DNA of 64,000 nt from Octopus sinensis (taxonomy: Eukaryota). Both the position numbers and the translations under genes were made by a program. Below the pieces are notes generated by a model that made no database searches, had not been told where the DNA came from, and saw only the letters and a list, made by a program, of their open reading frames with translations. Location: the NCBI RefSeq assembly GCF_006345805.1, contig NC_043024.1, positions 2,542,001 through 2,606,000 of the forward strand, in the 5' to 3' direction. Below are positions 1,601 to 63,635 of this stretch, in pieces; the stretch's first letter is position 1; every line of letters begins with the position of its first letter.

Positions 1601-1730
1601 ATATTACAGCTGTTTCAGCCATGCAGATATGGGTGCCTCATTAAGCTCATATTAGCCATGTGTGATAGGTTAATATGTGGTTATAAATGAGACACTTACA
1701 AAAATATCCCAAGGCCTCTTCAGAGATTAT
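1601..1730 (-). ncRNA. Minimal type I hammerhead ribozyme motif (degenerate stem I) in a Penelope-like fragment
   Basis: CTGAAGA-GGCC...GGCT-GAAA-CAGCTG-TA on the minus strand. Confidence 0.55.
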
Positions 1731-10100: not shown

Positions 10101-10367
10101 CATCAACCGTTTCAAAGTAAACATTAGTCCTTGCTCTTTTTAACACAATAACTTCTGGTATTTCATATACAGCAGATCTTTCCTTCTATGTTTCCAACGA
10201 AGAGCTCCGCTCGAAACGTTAAACCCTCCATCTTTTCTGAGCGTCAAATAATACTATATTTGTTCCACGTCCTCGCGTTGTTGTGTTTTTTTTTGTGCTT
10301 TCTTGTATAGATTAACTATATATATACATATATATATATATATATACATATATATATGTATATATAA

Positions 10368-10585
10368 CCGATCGTAGCCGCTGCCAGACTCACCTGGCAC
10401 CTGTGGCGGTGGAATGTAAGAAAAAAACCCTACACTCGCGGAGTGGTTGGCATTAGGAAGGGCATCAGGCTGTAGAAACACTGCCAGATCACACTGGGCC
10501 TGGTGCAGCCTGCTGGCTTCCCAGACCCCGGTCGAACCGTCCAACCCGTGCTAGCATGGAAAGCAACGATCATGATGATGATGAT
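10368..10585 (+). mobile_element. RTE 3'-UTR fragment shared by units (also about 19890, 33510, 46577, 53382, 62000)
   Basis: Homologous to the 3' end of the 39176-41938 LINE; (GAT)n tail. Confidence 0.75.
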
Positions 10586-10660
10586 ATATATACGAATTAA
10601 AATTCAGGAAACACAGAAGTAGCATTAATATAGTTTATTAACTGCAAAAATTCAACATGT

Positions 10661-10742
10661 ACACTTACAGCTGTTTCGATTTTGCTCAAAAGCAATTCCA
10701 ATAATTAAAACATTTAATTGGGCAAAATCTCATCAGAGGAAT
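10661..10742 (-). ncRNA. Minimal type I hammerhead ribozyme motif
   Basis: CTGATGA-GATTTTGC...GCAAAATC-GAAA-CAGCTG-TA; 8-bp stem II, palindromic stem III, weak stem I. Confidence 0.65.
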
Positions 10743-10869
10743 GAAAAAGACATATCGTTAGGTTATCACGTTATTCTTCCAAAACATCTCAACAGACTAA
10801 AACCTTTTTTAATTACTAATATTGGTATAAATCTTGGCCAGTGGGTAACAGGTTGTATAAGGGTAATAA

Positions 10870-11576
10870 TCTTTATATATATAAAACTGAGAATGTGTGC
10901 CTGTCTGTCTGTGTGTTTCCCTTAAACTTGTGAACTACAGAACCAATTTCATTCAAATTTTACACATGCCTTACTTAGGGTCCATGTAGTTTCATGGGCA
11001 AAAAAAAAATGTTCAACTTCTTGCCTAGAGCGAGCCCATAGCAATATCTTCTTCATTGTTTCAGTATTACATGTTAAAAGTGAAACAGAAATATTTCTTT
11101 ATTTTATGTCAGATGCTTTCACTTTAACAATAAAAATAATAACAATTGAATTATATGTAGTAAGTAATAATTAAAATCAAACTAAAGTATAGTATAATTG
11201 TAACATACAAAAGTAAAAATAGCAATTGGTATAAAATTGCATCAATGATTTGAACTTGAATAAGTGGTTTCACATGAATGGGAATAAAGTAAAAATATAA
11301 TTAGCGTGCAGAAATGGAATAGTCCAGAAGGATAATACAAAATTAAATTAAAGAAAAGACTATTGTCTATAAATTATACAACGTAGAGAAAAAAGAAGAG
11401 CTAACAATTCCAGTCTGTTATATATTTTGAATATTGTTATCACTAGCGATATCAAGATATAACTTTGTATTTTGCATTTTATGTGTAGATGTATATAGAT
11501 AGATGTACATGTAATATGTACACATATATACATGCACTAGCACTATGACCCGGCAACGACGGGTCTTTAATGCTAG
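10870..11576 (+). mobile_element. Non-autonomous Helitron (also 20395-21100, 34011-34717; 3' parts ending 47503 and 62604)
   Basis: A|TC start, subterminal hairpin GACCCG-GCAACGA-CGGGTC, CTAG|T end, no TSD. Confidence 0.78.
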
Positions 11577-11770
11577 TTGGTAAATAAATGGTAGATAGTG
11601 AGTGATATTTCTCACTATAATTATTTTATAATGTATCGATTTAATTATTTTCTAATTTATCTATATCAGTTCAATCAATTTCTTTAACAAAGTTATAAAT
11701 GTGATCACGTTGTTCTCTCATTCATATGATACTATTTTTACTATAACTCACTAATCTAACATTTATTTAA

Positions 11771-12557: not shown

Positions 12558-13314
<757 letters not shown>

Positions 13315-15003
13315 CTATAGCGTGTGAACGTATTTGTGTTTAGTTAGGGTTTGATTCTGAGAGAACGATTCTCCACAAATATCACACTGATAAGGTTTCT
13401 CTCCAGTGTGAATGTATTTGTGAGTAGTTAAGTGGTGATTATGAGAGAATGATTTACCACAGATATCACAGTGATAAGGTTTCTCTCCTGTATGAATGTA
13501 TTTGTGTTTAGTTAAGTGGTGATTATGAGAGAATGATTTACCACAGATATCACAGTGATAAGGTTTCTCTCCTGTATGAATGTATTTGTGAGTAGTTAAG
13601 TGGTGATTCTGAGAGAATGATTTACCACAGATATCACAATGATATGGTTTCTCTCCCGTATGGATACGTTTGTGTTTACTCAAGTGGTAACTTTGAGAAA
13701 AAGATTTACCGCAAATATTACAGGGATAGGGTTTCTCACCTGTATGAATGCGCCTATGAGTAATTAAATGATGATTTCGAGAGAATGATTTACCACAGAT
13801 ATCACAGTGATAAGGTTTCTCTCCTGTGTGAAGGTATTTGTGAGTAGTTAAGTGCTGATTTTGAGAGAATGATTTACCACAGATATCACAATGATATGGT
13901 TTCTCTCCTGTATGAATACGTTTGTGTTGAATTAACTGACTACTTTGAGAGAATGATTTACCACAGATATCACAATGATATGGTTTTTCTCCTGTATGAA
14001 TACGTTTGTGAGTGGTTAGGTAGCAATTTCTAGAGTATGATTTACCACAGGTGTTACAGCGATACGGCTTGACACCTGTGTGAATGTGTTTATGTGTGGT
14101 CAAACGAACCTTTTCAGAGAATGATTTACCACAGATATCACAATGATAAGGTTTCTCTCCTGTATGAATGTATTTGTGTTTAGTTAAGCACTGATTATGA
14201 GAGAATGATTTACCACATATATCACAATGATAAGGTTTCTCTCCTGTGTGAATGTATTTGTGAACAGTTAAGTGGTGATTTTGAGAGAATGATTTACCAC
14301 AGATATTACAGTGATAAGGTTTCTCTCCTGTGTGAATGTATTTATGAGTAGTTAAGTGGTTATTTTGAGAGAATGATTTTCCACAGGTATCACAATGATA
14401 TGGTTTCTCTCCTGTATGAATACGTTTGTGAGTGGTTAGGTCACTATTTCCAGGGAATGATTTACCACAGATATCACAATGATATGGTTTCTCTCCCGTA
14501 TGAATACGTTTGTGTTTACTCAAAGGGTAACTTTGAGAAAAAGATTTACCGCAAATATTACAGGGATAGGGTTTCTCACCTGTATGAATACGTTTGTGAG
14601 TGGTTAGGTCGCTATTTCTAGAGAATGATTTACCACAGATATCGCAATGATGTGATTTAACCACAATGTTGATGCATTTGTGATTAGCTAAGCTATGATT
14701 CTGAGAGAATGATTTACCACAGGTGTTACAGCGATATGGCTTGACACCTGCGTGAATGTGTTTATGTGTGGTCAAACGAACCTTTTCAGAGAATGATTTA
14801 CCACAGATGTCACAGCGATAGAGATCCTCTCCTGCATGGAAACATTTGTGATTCGTCTGTTCATCTTTGAGAAAGAAGGACTTGTTGCAGACATCACAGT
14901 GAAATGATGTTTTCCCTTCTTCTTCTGTTTCATCTTCAGTAAAATCAATCCTTAACGACTGTGTATTACATATAACCTCATTATCACGTAATCCATTTTC
15001 CAT
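13315..15003 (-). CDS. Poly-C2H2 zinc-finger protein, copy 2 (562 aa, about 18 fingers)
   Basis: Same N-terminus as copy 1; ends HTL*(TAG) inside a linker. Confidence 0.92.
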
Positions 15004-15966
15004 TATTTTTCTCCTCTCGCCACAAAGTCCAAATGTCTTTCTTTTTTTTTATATTCTATTCCCCAGTTATTTCTGTTGCTTGAAATGCTTAGTGGTATTT
15101 CGTCTGTCTTTTTGTTCTGAGTTCAAATTCCACCGAGGTCGACTTTGCCTTTCATCCTTTCAGGGTCAATAAATAAAGTACCAGTTTCACACTGGGGTAG
15201 ATATAATCGACTTAATCGCTTTGTCTGTCCTTATTTGTACCCTCTATGTTTAGCCCCCTAGGGGGCAATAAAGAAATATATATTTCCATCAACTTTAATC
15301 ATTGTCAATATCTGAGGGGGCTGCCAATTCCTTTGCAATCCAGGTTTAATTGGAATACATGATTGGTTTTCTTGCACCTATTCCAGGCAGTAAAGTACAG
15401 AAATGCTGCTAATAATCACACACCCAAAGAAAATCTTTTACAATTCTATAATCGATTTATATAAACAGGGTAATATTTCTTCTGTGTAGCATCTTAGTTT
15501 CATCTCAAAGAATATATCATATATATTCGTGATGTGTTCGATGTAAAATCTTCTTTTATGCTAAATATCCTCTCTGATACTCTGAAATAAAAAAGAAATA
15601 ATATGAGATATAGAATACACTTGAAAAGTAAAGATTAAATAATGAAAATTCTATTACGTTTTTATACTGATAAACTGGAGATATAAACCTTTAGCTGGCC
15701 AAATAAACGTTAACACGTCAGTCTGACAAACAAACAAGGAGATTATAAGGTAGTTAATGGGATGTGCTAAAAATAATAGCTAAATAGCTCTAAAATCACG
15801 CAGCAATTTTTAAAATTTCGTTTAGGTTTTTGCACAATCCTATGAATTACAGATTCGCAAGAGTTTTCTAAAAATTCCCCAAAAGTTTTGAACCAACAAA
15901 GAATTTATAATTTACATCTGCTGTTTGTTTGTTGAGCGAAGCGGTCTTCGTCCCAGAGCTCGCAAG

Positions 15967-20183: not shown

Positions 20184-20265
20184 ACACTTACAGCTGTTTC
20201 GATTTTGCTCAAAAGCAATTCCAATAATTAAAACATTTAATTGGGCAAAATCTCATCAGAGGAAT
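20184..20265 (-). ncRNA. Hammerhead motif, unit copy
   Basis: Identical core to 10661-10742. Confidence 0.65.
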
Positions 20266-33800: not shown

Positions 33801-33882
33801 ACACTTACAGCTGTTTCGATTTTGCTCAAAAGAAATTCCAATAATTAAAACATTTAATTGGGCAAAATCTCATCAGAGGAAT
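33801..33882 (-). ncRNA. Hammerhead motif, unit copy
   Basis: Identical core. Confidence 0.65.
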
Positions 33883-52688: not shown

Positions 52689-52779
52689 TTTTAGTACAAT
52701 TGTTTCATACAAAGACTGGCTTTATTAAAAGTTGCAAATATTGCAGCAGATAAAAGTGTCCCGTACTCATCAGCTAAAA
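52689..52779 (-). ncRNA. Complete minimal type I hammerhead ribozyme in a unique Penelope-like insert (about 52545-53058)
   Basis: TTTTAG-CTGATGA-GTAC...GTAT-GAAA-CAATTG-TA-CTAAAA; perfect 6-bp stem I; predicted cleavage after GUA at 52695. Confidence 0.75.
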
Positions 52780-53470: not shown

Positions 53471-58108
<4,638 letters not shown>

Positions 58109-59716
58109 TATTTTTCTCCTCTCACCACAAGGTCCAAATGGTTTTCTTTTTTTATATTCTATTCCCCAGTTATTTCTGTTGCTTGAAATGCTTAGGGGTA
58201 TTTCGTCTGTCTTTTTGTTCTGAGTTCAAATTCCACCGAGGTTGACTTTGCCTTTCATCCTTTTGGGGTCAATAAAGTACCAGTTTCACACTGGGGTAGA
58301 TATAATCGACTTAATCCCTTTGTCAGTCCTTGTTTGTCCCCTCTATGTTTAGCCCCCTAGTGGGCAATAAAGAAATATATATTTCCATCAACTGTAATCA
58401 TTGTCAATATCTGAGGGGGCTGCCAATTCCTTTACAATCCAGGTTTAATTACAATACAGGATTGGTTTTCTTGCACCCATTCCAGGCAGTAAAGTACAGA
58501 AATGCTGCTAATAATCACACACCCAAAGAAAATCTTTTACAATTCTATAATCGATTTATATAAACAGGGTAATATTTCTTCTGTGTAGCGTCTTAAAGAA
58601 TATATCATATATATTCATGATGTGTTCGATGTAAAATCTTCTTTTATGCTAAATATCCTCTCTGATACTCTGAAATAAAAAAGAAATAATATGAGATATA
58701 GAATATACTTGAAAATAAAGATTAAATAATGAAAATTTTATTACGTTTTTATGCTGATAAACTGGAGATATAAACCTTTAGCTGGCCAAATAAACGTTAA
58801 CACGTCAGTCTGACAAACAAACAAGGAGATTATAAGGTAGTCATGGGATGTGCTACAAATAATAGCTAAATAGCTCTTAAATCACGCAGCAATTTAAAAA
58901 ATTTTGTTTTGGTTTTTGCACAATCCTATGAATTACAAATTCGCAAGAGTTTCTAAAAATTCCCAAAAAGTTTTGAACCAACGAAGAATTTATAATTTAC
59001 ATCTGCTGTTTGTTTGTTGAGCGAATCGGTGTTCGTCCAGAGCTCGCAAGATGGAAGAAGTCGGAAACGTGGTCCTTTGCTATTCGTAAGACCTGCAGAA
59101 GAGAAAGCAGGTCAGCCCCCCCCCCCCCCGACACCGAGAGCATTGACGGATGGATGAATGCGCATCCAGGCTCGGCGGTTGCGTAGGAAGTCGGGGGACA
59201 AGAAACAGGAAGAAAGAGTGAGAGAAAGTTGGGGCGAAAGAGTACAACAGGGGTCGCCACCACCCTCTGCTGGAGCATCGTGGAGCTTTAGGTGTTTTCG
59301 CTTAATAAACACTCACAATGACCGGTCTGGGAATCGAAACCGCGTTCCTCTGAATGCGAGTCCGCTGCCCTAACCACTGGGCCATTGCGCCTCCACTTAC
59401 ATCTGCTGTATATGAAATACCAGAGGTTATTCTGTTCAAAAGAGCAAGGACTAATGTTTACTTTGAAACGGTTGATGATGATGATGATGATGATATATAT
59501 ATATATATAGTTATTGCCCACAAGGGGATATACAAAGAGGGGACAAACAAGGACAGACATAGGGATTAAGTCGATTACATCGAACCCAGTGCATAACTGG
59601 TACTTAATTTATCGACCCTGAAAGATGAAAGGCAAAGCCTACCTCAGTGGAATTTGAACTCATAACGTAAAGACACATTTCGCCCATCGTGCTAATGTTG
59701 CTGCCAAGCTCGCCAC

Positions 59717-61999: not shown

Positions 62000-63635
62000 G
62001 ATCGTGGCCGCTGGCAGACTCCCCTGGCACCTGTGCTGGTGGCATGTAAAAAACACCCACTACACTCGCGGAGTGGTTGGCGTTAGGAAGGGCATCCAGC
62101 TGTAGAAACACTGCCAGATCAGACTGGGCCTGGTGCAGCCTCCTGGCTTCCCAGACCCTGGTCGAACCGTCCAACCCATGCTAGCACGGAAAACGGATAT
62201 TAAATGATGATCATGATGATGATATATATGTACAAATTAAAATCCAGGAAACAGAGAAGTAGCATTAATATAGTTTATTCACTGCAAAAATTCAACATGT
62301 ACACTTACAGCTGTTTCGATTTTGCTCAAAAGAAATTCCAATAATTAAAACCTTTAATTGGGCAAAATCTCATCAAAAATTGAATTAAAGAAAAGACTAT
62401 TGTCTATAAAGTATACAACGTAGAGAAGAAAAGAGCTAACAATTCCAGTCTGTTATATATTTTGAGCATTGTTATCACTAGCGATATCAAGATATAACTT
62501 TGTATTTTATGTGTAGATGTATATATATAGATGTACATGTAATATGTACACATATATACATGCACTAGCACTATGACCCGGCAACGACGGGTCTTTCATG
62601 CTAGTTGGTAAATAAATGGTAGATAGTGAGTTATATTTCTCACTATAATTATTTTATAATGTATCGATTTAATTATTTTGTAATTTATCTATATCAGTTC
62701 AATCAATTTCTTTAACAAAGTTATAAACGTGATCACGTTGTTCTCTCATTCATATGATACTATTTTTACTATAACTCACAAATCTAACATTTATTTAATG
62801 CGGTTTCGATTCCCAGACCGGGCGTTGTGTGTGTTTATTGAGCGAATTTGGTAGACGGAAACTGAAAGATGCCTGTCGTATATGTGTATATATATATATA
62901 TGTATGTGTGGGTTTGTGTGTCTGTGTTTGTCCCCCTAGCTTTGCTTGTCAATCGATGCTGGTGTGTTTATGTCCCCGTCACTTAGTGGTTCAGCAAAAG
63001 AGACCGATAGAATAAGTACTGGGCTTACAAAGAATAAGTCCTGGGGTTGATTTGCTTGACTAAAGGCGGTGCTCCAGCATGGCCGCAGTCAAATGACTGA
63101 AACAAGTAAAATAGAGAGAGAGAGAGTAATAGAATTATCACAGTGTTATGGTTTCTTTCCTGCGTGGATATGTTTGTGAGTAGTTAAGTTACCTTTTTGA
63201 GAGAAAGACTTTTCACATACATCACAGTGAAAAGGCTTCTCTCCCATGTGAATGTGTTTGTGAGAAATTAAGGTATGGTTCTGAGAGAAGGATTTACCAC
63301 AGATATCACACACGTATGGCTTCTCTCCTGTGTGAACACGTTTGTGTTTGATTAAGACATCGCTCTTTGAAAAAGACTTTCCACAGATATCGCAGTGATA
63401 TGGCCTCCCTCCTGTATGAATAAGTTTGTGTTTAGCTAAGTGATGATTTAAAGAGAATGATTTACCACAGATATCACAGTTATACGGCTTCTCTTTACTA
63501 TGAATGTGTTTATGAGGATTTAAGTCACCAGCGAGTGACTTTCCACAGGTATCACAGTAGTATAGTTCCTCTCCAGTATGGAAGGGTTTGTGTTTAGTTA
63601 AATGTTAATTTTATGAGAATGATTTACCACAACTA

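Follow-up and report, generated by a model that had tools for sequence, protein, structure and literature searches.

Downstream of a C2H2 zinc-finger gene of Octopus sinensis lies a motif that is, as judged by its sequence, a minimal type I hammerhead ribozyme of the kind found in Penelope-like elements (PLEs). It occupies positions 10664-10738 on the minus strand of the window, the whole stretch of 64,000 nucleotides that was analysed. The motif belongs to a transposon-derived repeat, which was duplicated at the DNA level together with the neighbouring gene. It is highly probable that an old Penelope-like insertion 3′ of a zinc-finger gene was multiplied in this manner to 17 copies, likely passively, and that the hammerhead is a passenger. 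The original prediction had named a passive passenger as its fallback, which the data favour; the role that it had put forward, cutting of read-through RNA, is unsupported.

Read on the minus strand, the motif begins with CUGAUGA (10736-10730, with C3 at 10736), followed by an 8-bp stem II (10729-10722 paired with 10685-10678; stem II insert 52 nt, capped by a 36-nt insert), GAAA (10677-10674), CAGCUG, U 10667 and A 10666. Stem III is an 8-nt palindrome (10674-10667). Stem I, expected to be short (2-4 bp), is indeed short and can be narrowed to 2 bp (10738-10737 with 10665-10664). The predicted cut site is 3′ of A17, which is A 10666. The order of core elements typical for PLEs (CUGANGA, GAAA, UH) is present, the corresponding descriptor being passed by 14 of the 17 array copies, and the long, 8-bp stem II is closed by G10.1-C11.1. 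In the window copy and in the dispersed copies of the family, G10.1 follows directly after A9; an extra nucleotide between the two is described as usual, not obligatory, in the consensus of 2014 (passages of PMC4209133). The hallmarks of canonical fast hammerheads, a 6-bp stem I and contacts between loop I and loop II, are lacking, stem I having 2 bp, and an Rfam scan of the window at the gathering threshold yielded no match.

The ORFs neighbouring the hammerheads encode C2H2 zinc-finger arrays on the same strand as the motif (Table 1). Minus-strand cores had been reported near 10661, 20184, 33801 and 46878, about 1.5-1.8 kb past the finger regions; the four cores are identical, C3 could be placed in each of them, and the distance was measured as 1.5-1.8 kb. 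An unchanged core in four copies is to be expected because the duplication is recent (94-100% identity). The copy near 62301 had been thought to lack its first C owing to a deletion. Since the deletion junction is common to two other array copies of equal length that retain C3, a C-to-T substitution is the simplest and most likely explanation. A candidate AATAAA does lie between gene and motif, as had been noted, and it is not distinctive: between 12600 and 10200 there are four AATAAA and seven ATTAAA hexamers, that is, 11 in 2.4 kb. The AATAAA just beyond the predicted cut is probably native to the transposon, because several dispersed family copies carry AATAAA at this place.

Table 1. Features of the window; positions and strands refer to the window.
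Feature	Position	Strand	Basis or remark
Independent hammerhead, family B, sense, ~1.0 kb 3′ of zinc-finger copy 1	1605-1725	-	
Direct piece of Penelope-like pseudo-LTR (family A), ends at (TA)n run	10584-10870 (290 bp)	-	70-86% identity to 45 dispersed pieces
AATAAA, 26 nt 3′ of predicted cut	10634-10639	-	occurs in several dispersed family copies too
Minimal type I hammerhead	10664-10738	-	sequence; stem II predicted, first pair probability 0.95
~700-bp later insertion splitting the pseudo-LTR	10871-11577	.	family sequence continuous there in dispersed copies
Inverted piece of family A pseudo-LTR, boundaries approximate	11610-11769	+	order in dispersed copies
Candidate poly(A) signal AATAAA	12096-12101	-	not the only such hexamer
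C2H2 zinc-finger ORF upstream of motif, 577 aa stop to stop	13315-15048	-	more fingers to 12558
Paralogous hammerhead, intact core, C3 20259	20187-20261	-	sequence
Paralogous hammerhead, intact core, C3 33876	33804-33878	-	sequence
Paralogous hammerhead, intact core, C3 46953; upstream deletion ends 12 nt before C3	46881-46955	-	
Paralogous hammerhead, T replacing C3 at 62376, just past upstream deletion junction	62304-62376	-	

Exact matches to the 22-nt 3′ half of the motif number 65 in the genome (15 of them within the array, the other 50 spread over 25 further contigs), versus none for the reversed 22-nt control, and the descriptor matches seven times in 400 kb of arbitrary genome (40 stretches of 10 kb; two of the seven motifs are one family at one locus) versus twice in ten shuffles. 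Because of both contrasts, the motif is not a chance occurrence. A genome search with a 261-base query around the motif, in which the best 40 of 426 candidates were scored, returned 42 matches, 17 within the array (94-100%) and 25 elsewhere (78-86%). In its dispersed copies the repeat, referred to here as family A, reaches ~950 bp, often with an adjacent piece on the opposite strand: the sequence of the inverted piece is found directly upstream of the direct piece in opposite orientation. Such 5′ inversion is typical of Penelope-like elements. 5′-truncated and inverted partial copies occur in the window (11610-11769) and at several loci. The 700-bp insertion that splits the truncated repeat, which may be Helitron-like by its end motifs, is common to all array copies. 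The window copy ends at (TA)n, and in five further copies (L014, L017, L023, L024 and L099) the end falls at the same position, within a microsatellite; of the 15 other copies shown, most besides those five run on past this point.

The attribution to Penelope is borne out by linkage. The repeat that holds the motif is the pseudo-LTR of a Penelope-like element, since it adjoins decayed RT/GIY-YIG ORF remnants at four loci. At L061, RT remnants lie between a 3′ half hammerhead, placed at the 5′ end, and a complete one 3.8 kb farther downstream; L099/L063 has inverted and direct 5′ copies, RT and GIY-YIG-type remnants and a third copy 5.0 kb on; at L062, the ORF remnant is accompanied by an inverted 5′ piece and a 3′ copy of the repeat; at L105, the repeat is on one side of the ORF remnant. 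The remaining four among the first eight loci of 10 kb (within L064-L068) gave no match to the ORF at E 1e-3. Piecewise, the remnants share 31-74% identity with the stop-to-stop ORF (960 aa) of L100, one of the 150 candidates scored in a search with an endonuclease piece. The 14,383 first-look candidates of this search indicate that Hydra-type Penelope elements are abundant in the genome, some with long ORFs still open. The L100 ORF is flanked by 2.2-kb direct repeats, both with the same hammerhead design and a different stem II, and other families, too, preserve the pairing of stem II with different letters. In its Atlas neighbours (0.95-0.98), HTH_animal, GIY-YIG and RVT_1 are present on some of the members, the top matches being cnidarian and ctenophore clusters. 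Neither the L100 ORF nor four pieces of decayed ORF were recognised by Pfam, and a PDB sequence search with the L100 ORF yielded no match.

The element probably belongs to the Hydra clade, an assignment made from the motifs of L100 and not from a tree. The L100 ORF contains DKT, a CxCx5C linker plus a GIY-YIG-type domain at its C-terminus that lacks the CCHH cysteine pair, in agreement with the clade features (DKT, CxCx5C linker, no CCHH) given in parts of Craig et al. 2021 (bioRxiv 10.1101/2021.04.23.441226). A further likeness to that description is the presence of hammerheads in both L100 repeats, and the ending of some copies at (TA)n or other microsatellites may be another. Unlike the Hydra-clade elements, which are generally under 3 kb, the units measured from hammerhead to hammerhead span 3.8-5.6 kb here. 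The family A ORF is too decayed for reading DKT, CxCx5C or CCHH, and an open ORF was not encountered in any copy of family A. L100, L101 and L102 are 99% identical Hydra-type elements on different contigs with open ORFs of 831-960 aa; their near-identity suggests a recently active Hydra-type family.

The survey of the zinc-finger array covered 656 kb of contig C28, on which 42 finger clusters (six or more fingers each) and 17 family A pieces are located. All 17 pieces lie 3′ of a finger cluster in the sense orientation, and they share 94-100% identity. Within 3.5 kb downstream, 17 clusters have an intact sense motif (14 of family A, three of family B) and 25 have none; no intact antisense motif is found within this distance at any of the 42. 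Grouping of the clusters by their 3′ flanks gives 20 lineages, two of which bear a motif. Neighbouring hammerhead copies are spaced 9.5-13.6 kb, one per gene unit. Since paralogy extends for kilobases past the repeat, across intergenic DNA and into the next unit, the amplified unit is a 10-13 kb DNA duplication. The short tandem hammerhead monomers of a non-LTR retrozyme are absent and, given the wide spacing of the copies, this classification was rejected.

Family B, the source of the second sense hammerhead, is a younger repeat related to the pseudo-LTR of L100/L108. It is situated about 1.0-1.1 kb 3′ of four units, one in the window and three near G000:C28 2137700, 2172071 and 2438280. The search for it gave 2,112 candidates, 21 of 27 close copies being intact and one of the four array copies having a broken core. 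By our count, 20 of 25 units of the subfamily hold a remnant of family A or family B. Two further hammerhead-like motifs occur in the region. One, with a CAAUUG palindrome, is found at 52695-52773 (minus strand), ~2 kb upstream of zinc-finger copy 5, and again at G000:C28 2466251, with a dispersed relative in L190. The other, a fourth family at ~10190-10240 (plus strand), is antisense to the genes and ~450 bp 3′ of the focal motif; it is decayed in copy 2 and intact at G000:C28 2408375 and 2614390.

No constraint on the hammerhead since the expansion of the array is detectable among the aligned copies. Across the 17 array copies, 5 of 38 hammerhead columns vary (four in the alignment, five when the trimmed C3 change is counted) versus 35 of 249 in the rest of the repeat (Fisher p = 1.0), a test of low power with 38 columns, copies 94-100% alike and a single genome. 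The original prediction had regarded equal divergence of core and flanks as evidence against a function, and equal divergence is what the copies display. Lesions within or adjoining the core affect three of the 17. The changes recorded are A17 to G together with a mismatch in stem II, loss of G10.1, C3 to T, and C11.1 to T, which is tolerated; 14 of the 17 keep an intact core, stem II and palindrome. Before the expansion the situation may have differed: compared with the commonest letter of the family in each column, the array copy deviates in 25 of 249 other columns and in none of the 38 hammerhead columns (Fisher p = 0.056, binomial 0.018), a contrast that is biased because the motif was picked out for being intact. 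Of the 45 dispersed pieces, 39 span the whole motif and 10 of these pass a looser intactness test; the dispersed copies, a set selected for resemblance to the query, diverge by a mean of 11.8% outside the motif and 9.0% within it. Two independent deletions upstream of the hammerhead reach to within 1 and 12 nt of C3, where the stem II hairpin has its base; they are borne by the copies at G000:C28 2480377, 2498862, 2604375 and 2511259, 2588966. Chance, a hairpin-linked breakpoint or selection may equally underlie these end points.

Folding prediction forms stem II (0.95) and neither stem I nor stem III; the active monomer, imposed as a constraint, makes up ~4e-8 of the predicted ensemble, tertiary contacts being ignored. 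For the 8-nt palindrome an intermolecular duplex of -11.1 kcal/mol is predicted. The palindrome dimer (-38.1) is level with two separate monomers (-38.2), and an alternative dimer that pairs through the long stem II is more stable than either (-46.4). Given the 9.5-13.6 kb between copies, dimer formation in cis within the array is unlikely. According to passages of PMC4209133, a minimal motif showed no cleavage as a monomer and low cleavage as a dimer, and for an anole PLE hammerhead, parts of PMC11167929 describe cutting only with the element protein and no RNA-seq ends at the site.

RNA coverage was assessed with assembled contigs from five of 23 runs (X1, X5, X9, X10 and X15), whose RNA status is a guess, none of the listed runs being recorded as RNA, and which reveal neither transcript ends nor strand. 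Contigs from probable RNA runs span array-specific junctions around the motif, and one X9 contig runs unbroken over the site from 10795 to 10513. Among the listed pieces of probable RNA runs, none ends at the cut site, although contigs cannot show ends; the X5 contigs end at 10770, which is an indel polymorphism rather than the cut site. One X1 contig passes the site by 22 nt and leaves the repeat at GT 10643. A splice junction at this position was considered and rejected: the 28 foreign letters, absent from the window and from 191 loci, are found at two positions of contig C4 and code for ribosomal protein S8e, which points to a probable library or assembly chimera.

These data can be reconciled in the following manner. 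Likely, a single old and truncated insertion took place 3′ of an ancestral zinc-finger gene, with its 5′ inverted piece beside (TA)n; the 700-bp insertion would later have split the pseudo-LTR. Duplication of the 10-13 kb gene unit would then have expanded the array, the hammerhead decaying neutrally. Precursor RNA of the active element would be cut by the ribozyme after GUA, probably through a palindrome dimer or with the element protein. At the array loci little or no cutting would be expected, and the genes would be independent of the hammerhead.

Other readings of the same data differ in what the ribozyme does. The motif could be competent and unselected, cutting some long transcripts as a trans dimer or with an element protein and having no function for the host. 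The 14 intact copies, the stability predicted for the palindrome duplex, the tie between palindrome dimer and two monomers and the presence of related elements with long open ORFs in the genome agree with this reading, which we nevertheless consider unlikely, as the competing dimer through stem II is more stable and family A has yielded no open ORF; that no contig ends at the site is uninformative alone. If native cleavage were true, it would provide an in vivo handle on what Penelope hammerheads do. Selection for cutting zinc-finger or read-through RNA, with the motif co-opted as a 3′-end element (termination, promoter insulation or destabilisation of a long 3′ UTR), is quite improbable. Weak hints in its direction are the unchanged hammerhead columns before expansion and the capture of the second family's hammerhead in the same orientation, so that four units have an independent sense motif and most of the subfamily holds one remnant or the other. 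The sense, 3′ placement of all 17 family A copies also fits, although it reflects one insertion event, as do the two deletions that spare the core, the coverage of the region by contigs of probable RNA runs and, as a precedent, the Clec2 3′ UTR hammerheads (treated in passages of the review PMC6765202). Co-option is opposed by the missing constraint since expansion, the 2-bp stem I with negligible predicted folding of the monomer and the existence of units with open 348-aa finger ORFs and no hammerhead. Moreover, the two flank lineages with a sense motif among 20 compare with 0.61 expected from the genomic background (Poisson p = 0.13). The unbroken X9 contig is weak counter-evidence, since contigs hide ends and its RNA status is guessed. 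Native cleavage combined with such a role would mean that a transposon ribozyme had been recruited to regulate genes in an invertebrate gene array, which is rare.

Two more far-reaching proposals concern the array as a whole. The zinc-finger subfamily, a young one, may have captured a sense Penelope hammerhead twice in its 3′ flank as a conditional switch, with long 3′ UTR or read-through RNA being cut only upon pairing of two transcripts or with a Penelope protein; this would couple zinc-finger expression to transposon activity and is very improbable. Amplification of the zinc-finger units through RNA by the Penelope machinery, with the pseudo-LTR as 3′ end of the mobilised unit, is hardly credible. 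The two motif-bearing flank lineages (16 and 4 copies) do rank among the three most amplified, and Penelope-like elements retain introns (according to parts of PMC4209133). However, another four-copy lineage is without the motif, a later insertion common to all copies interrupts the repeat, which is itself truncated, and the unit ends differ from the end of the pseudo-LTR; the paralogy that continues for kilobases past the pseudo-LTR largely refutes RNA-mediated amplification. Passive multiplication of one old insertion is the reading that we retain, and it offers an example of a transposon ribozyme that seems conserved beside a gene family only through recent duplication of the gene unit.

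The motif resembles the PLE minimal hammerheads of Cervera and de la Pena 2014 (PMC4209133), as described in the passages concerned, in being of type I with a long stem II, G10.1-C11.1 and a small palindromic stem III, in its short stem I (2 bp, a length shared with the Drosophila virilis variant), in its location in a pseudo-LTR and in the predominance of single truncated copies genome-wide. It departs from them in lacking the extra nucleotide between A9 and G10.1, in the 36-nt insert that caps stem II and in the secondary amplification of the window copy inside a host gene array. Non-LTR retrozymes, to the extent covered by sections of bioRxiv 10.64898/2026.07.22.740005, are likewise type I hammerheads in head-to-tail repeats derived from Penelope pseudo-LTRs; the repeated unit here is, in contrast, a 10-13 kb gene unit instead of a short tandem monomer, its spacing resulting from gene duplication. 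With the mammalian Clec2 hammerheads (same passages of PMC6765202) the motif shares the sense orientation downstream of a protein-coding ORF; the Clec2 hammerheads, which cleave in vitro, are discontinuous, whereas the present motif is a remnant of a transposon, has a 2-bp stem I and gives no sign of constraint. A literature search found no paper joining octopus, Penelope and a C2H2 cluster, the hammerhead and octopus literature as seen by title or abstract start contains nothing on zinc-finger arrays, and the searched passages of PMC13282606 and PMC12513265 do not mention hammerheads or ribozymes.

Several minor observations concern the surrounding DNA. A ~278-bp tandem repeat resembling the ribosomal protein S8e CDS (75% to L193) has more than 100 copies listed (L194-L201, G000:C27 near 16.89-16.91 Mb, and C10293 too). 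In several units the finger array runs beyond the stop of the main ORF (12558-15048 in the window, and paralogues); in copy 2 the longest frame holds 18 of 24 fingers, and the number of fingers per protein varies via stops or frameshifts. Just left of the window, ~212 C2H2 fingers are packed into 19 kb of the plus strand (G000:C28 2520521-2539659), with a longest open frame of 1593 aa and 56 fingers. Within the window, zinc-finger fragments in both orientations (53471-58225) surround an APE-RT LINE remnant (54122-56715; Pfam Exo_endo_phos and RVT_1), and a mirror arrangement is found at G000:C28 2461107-2465423.
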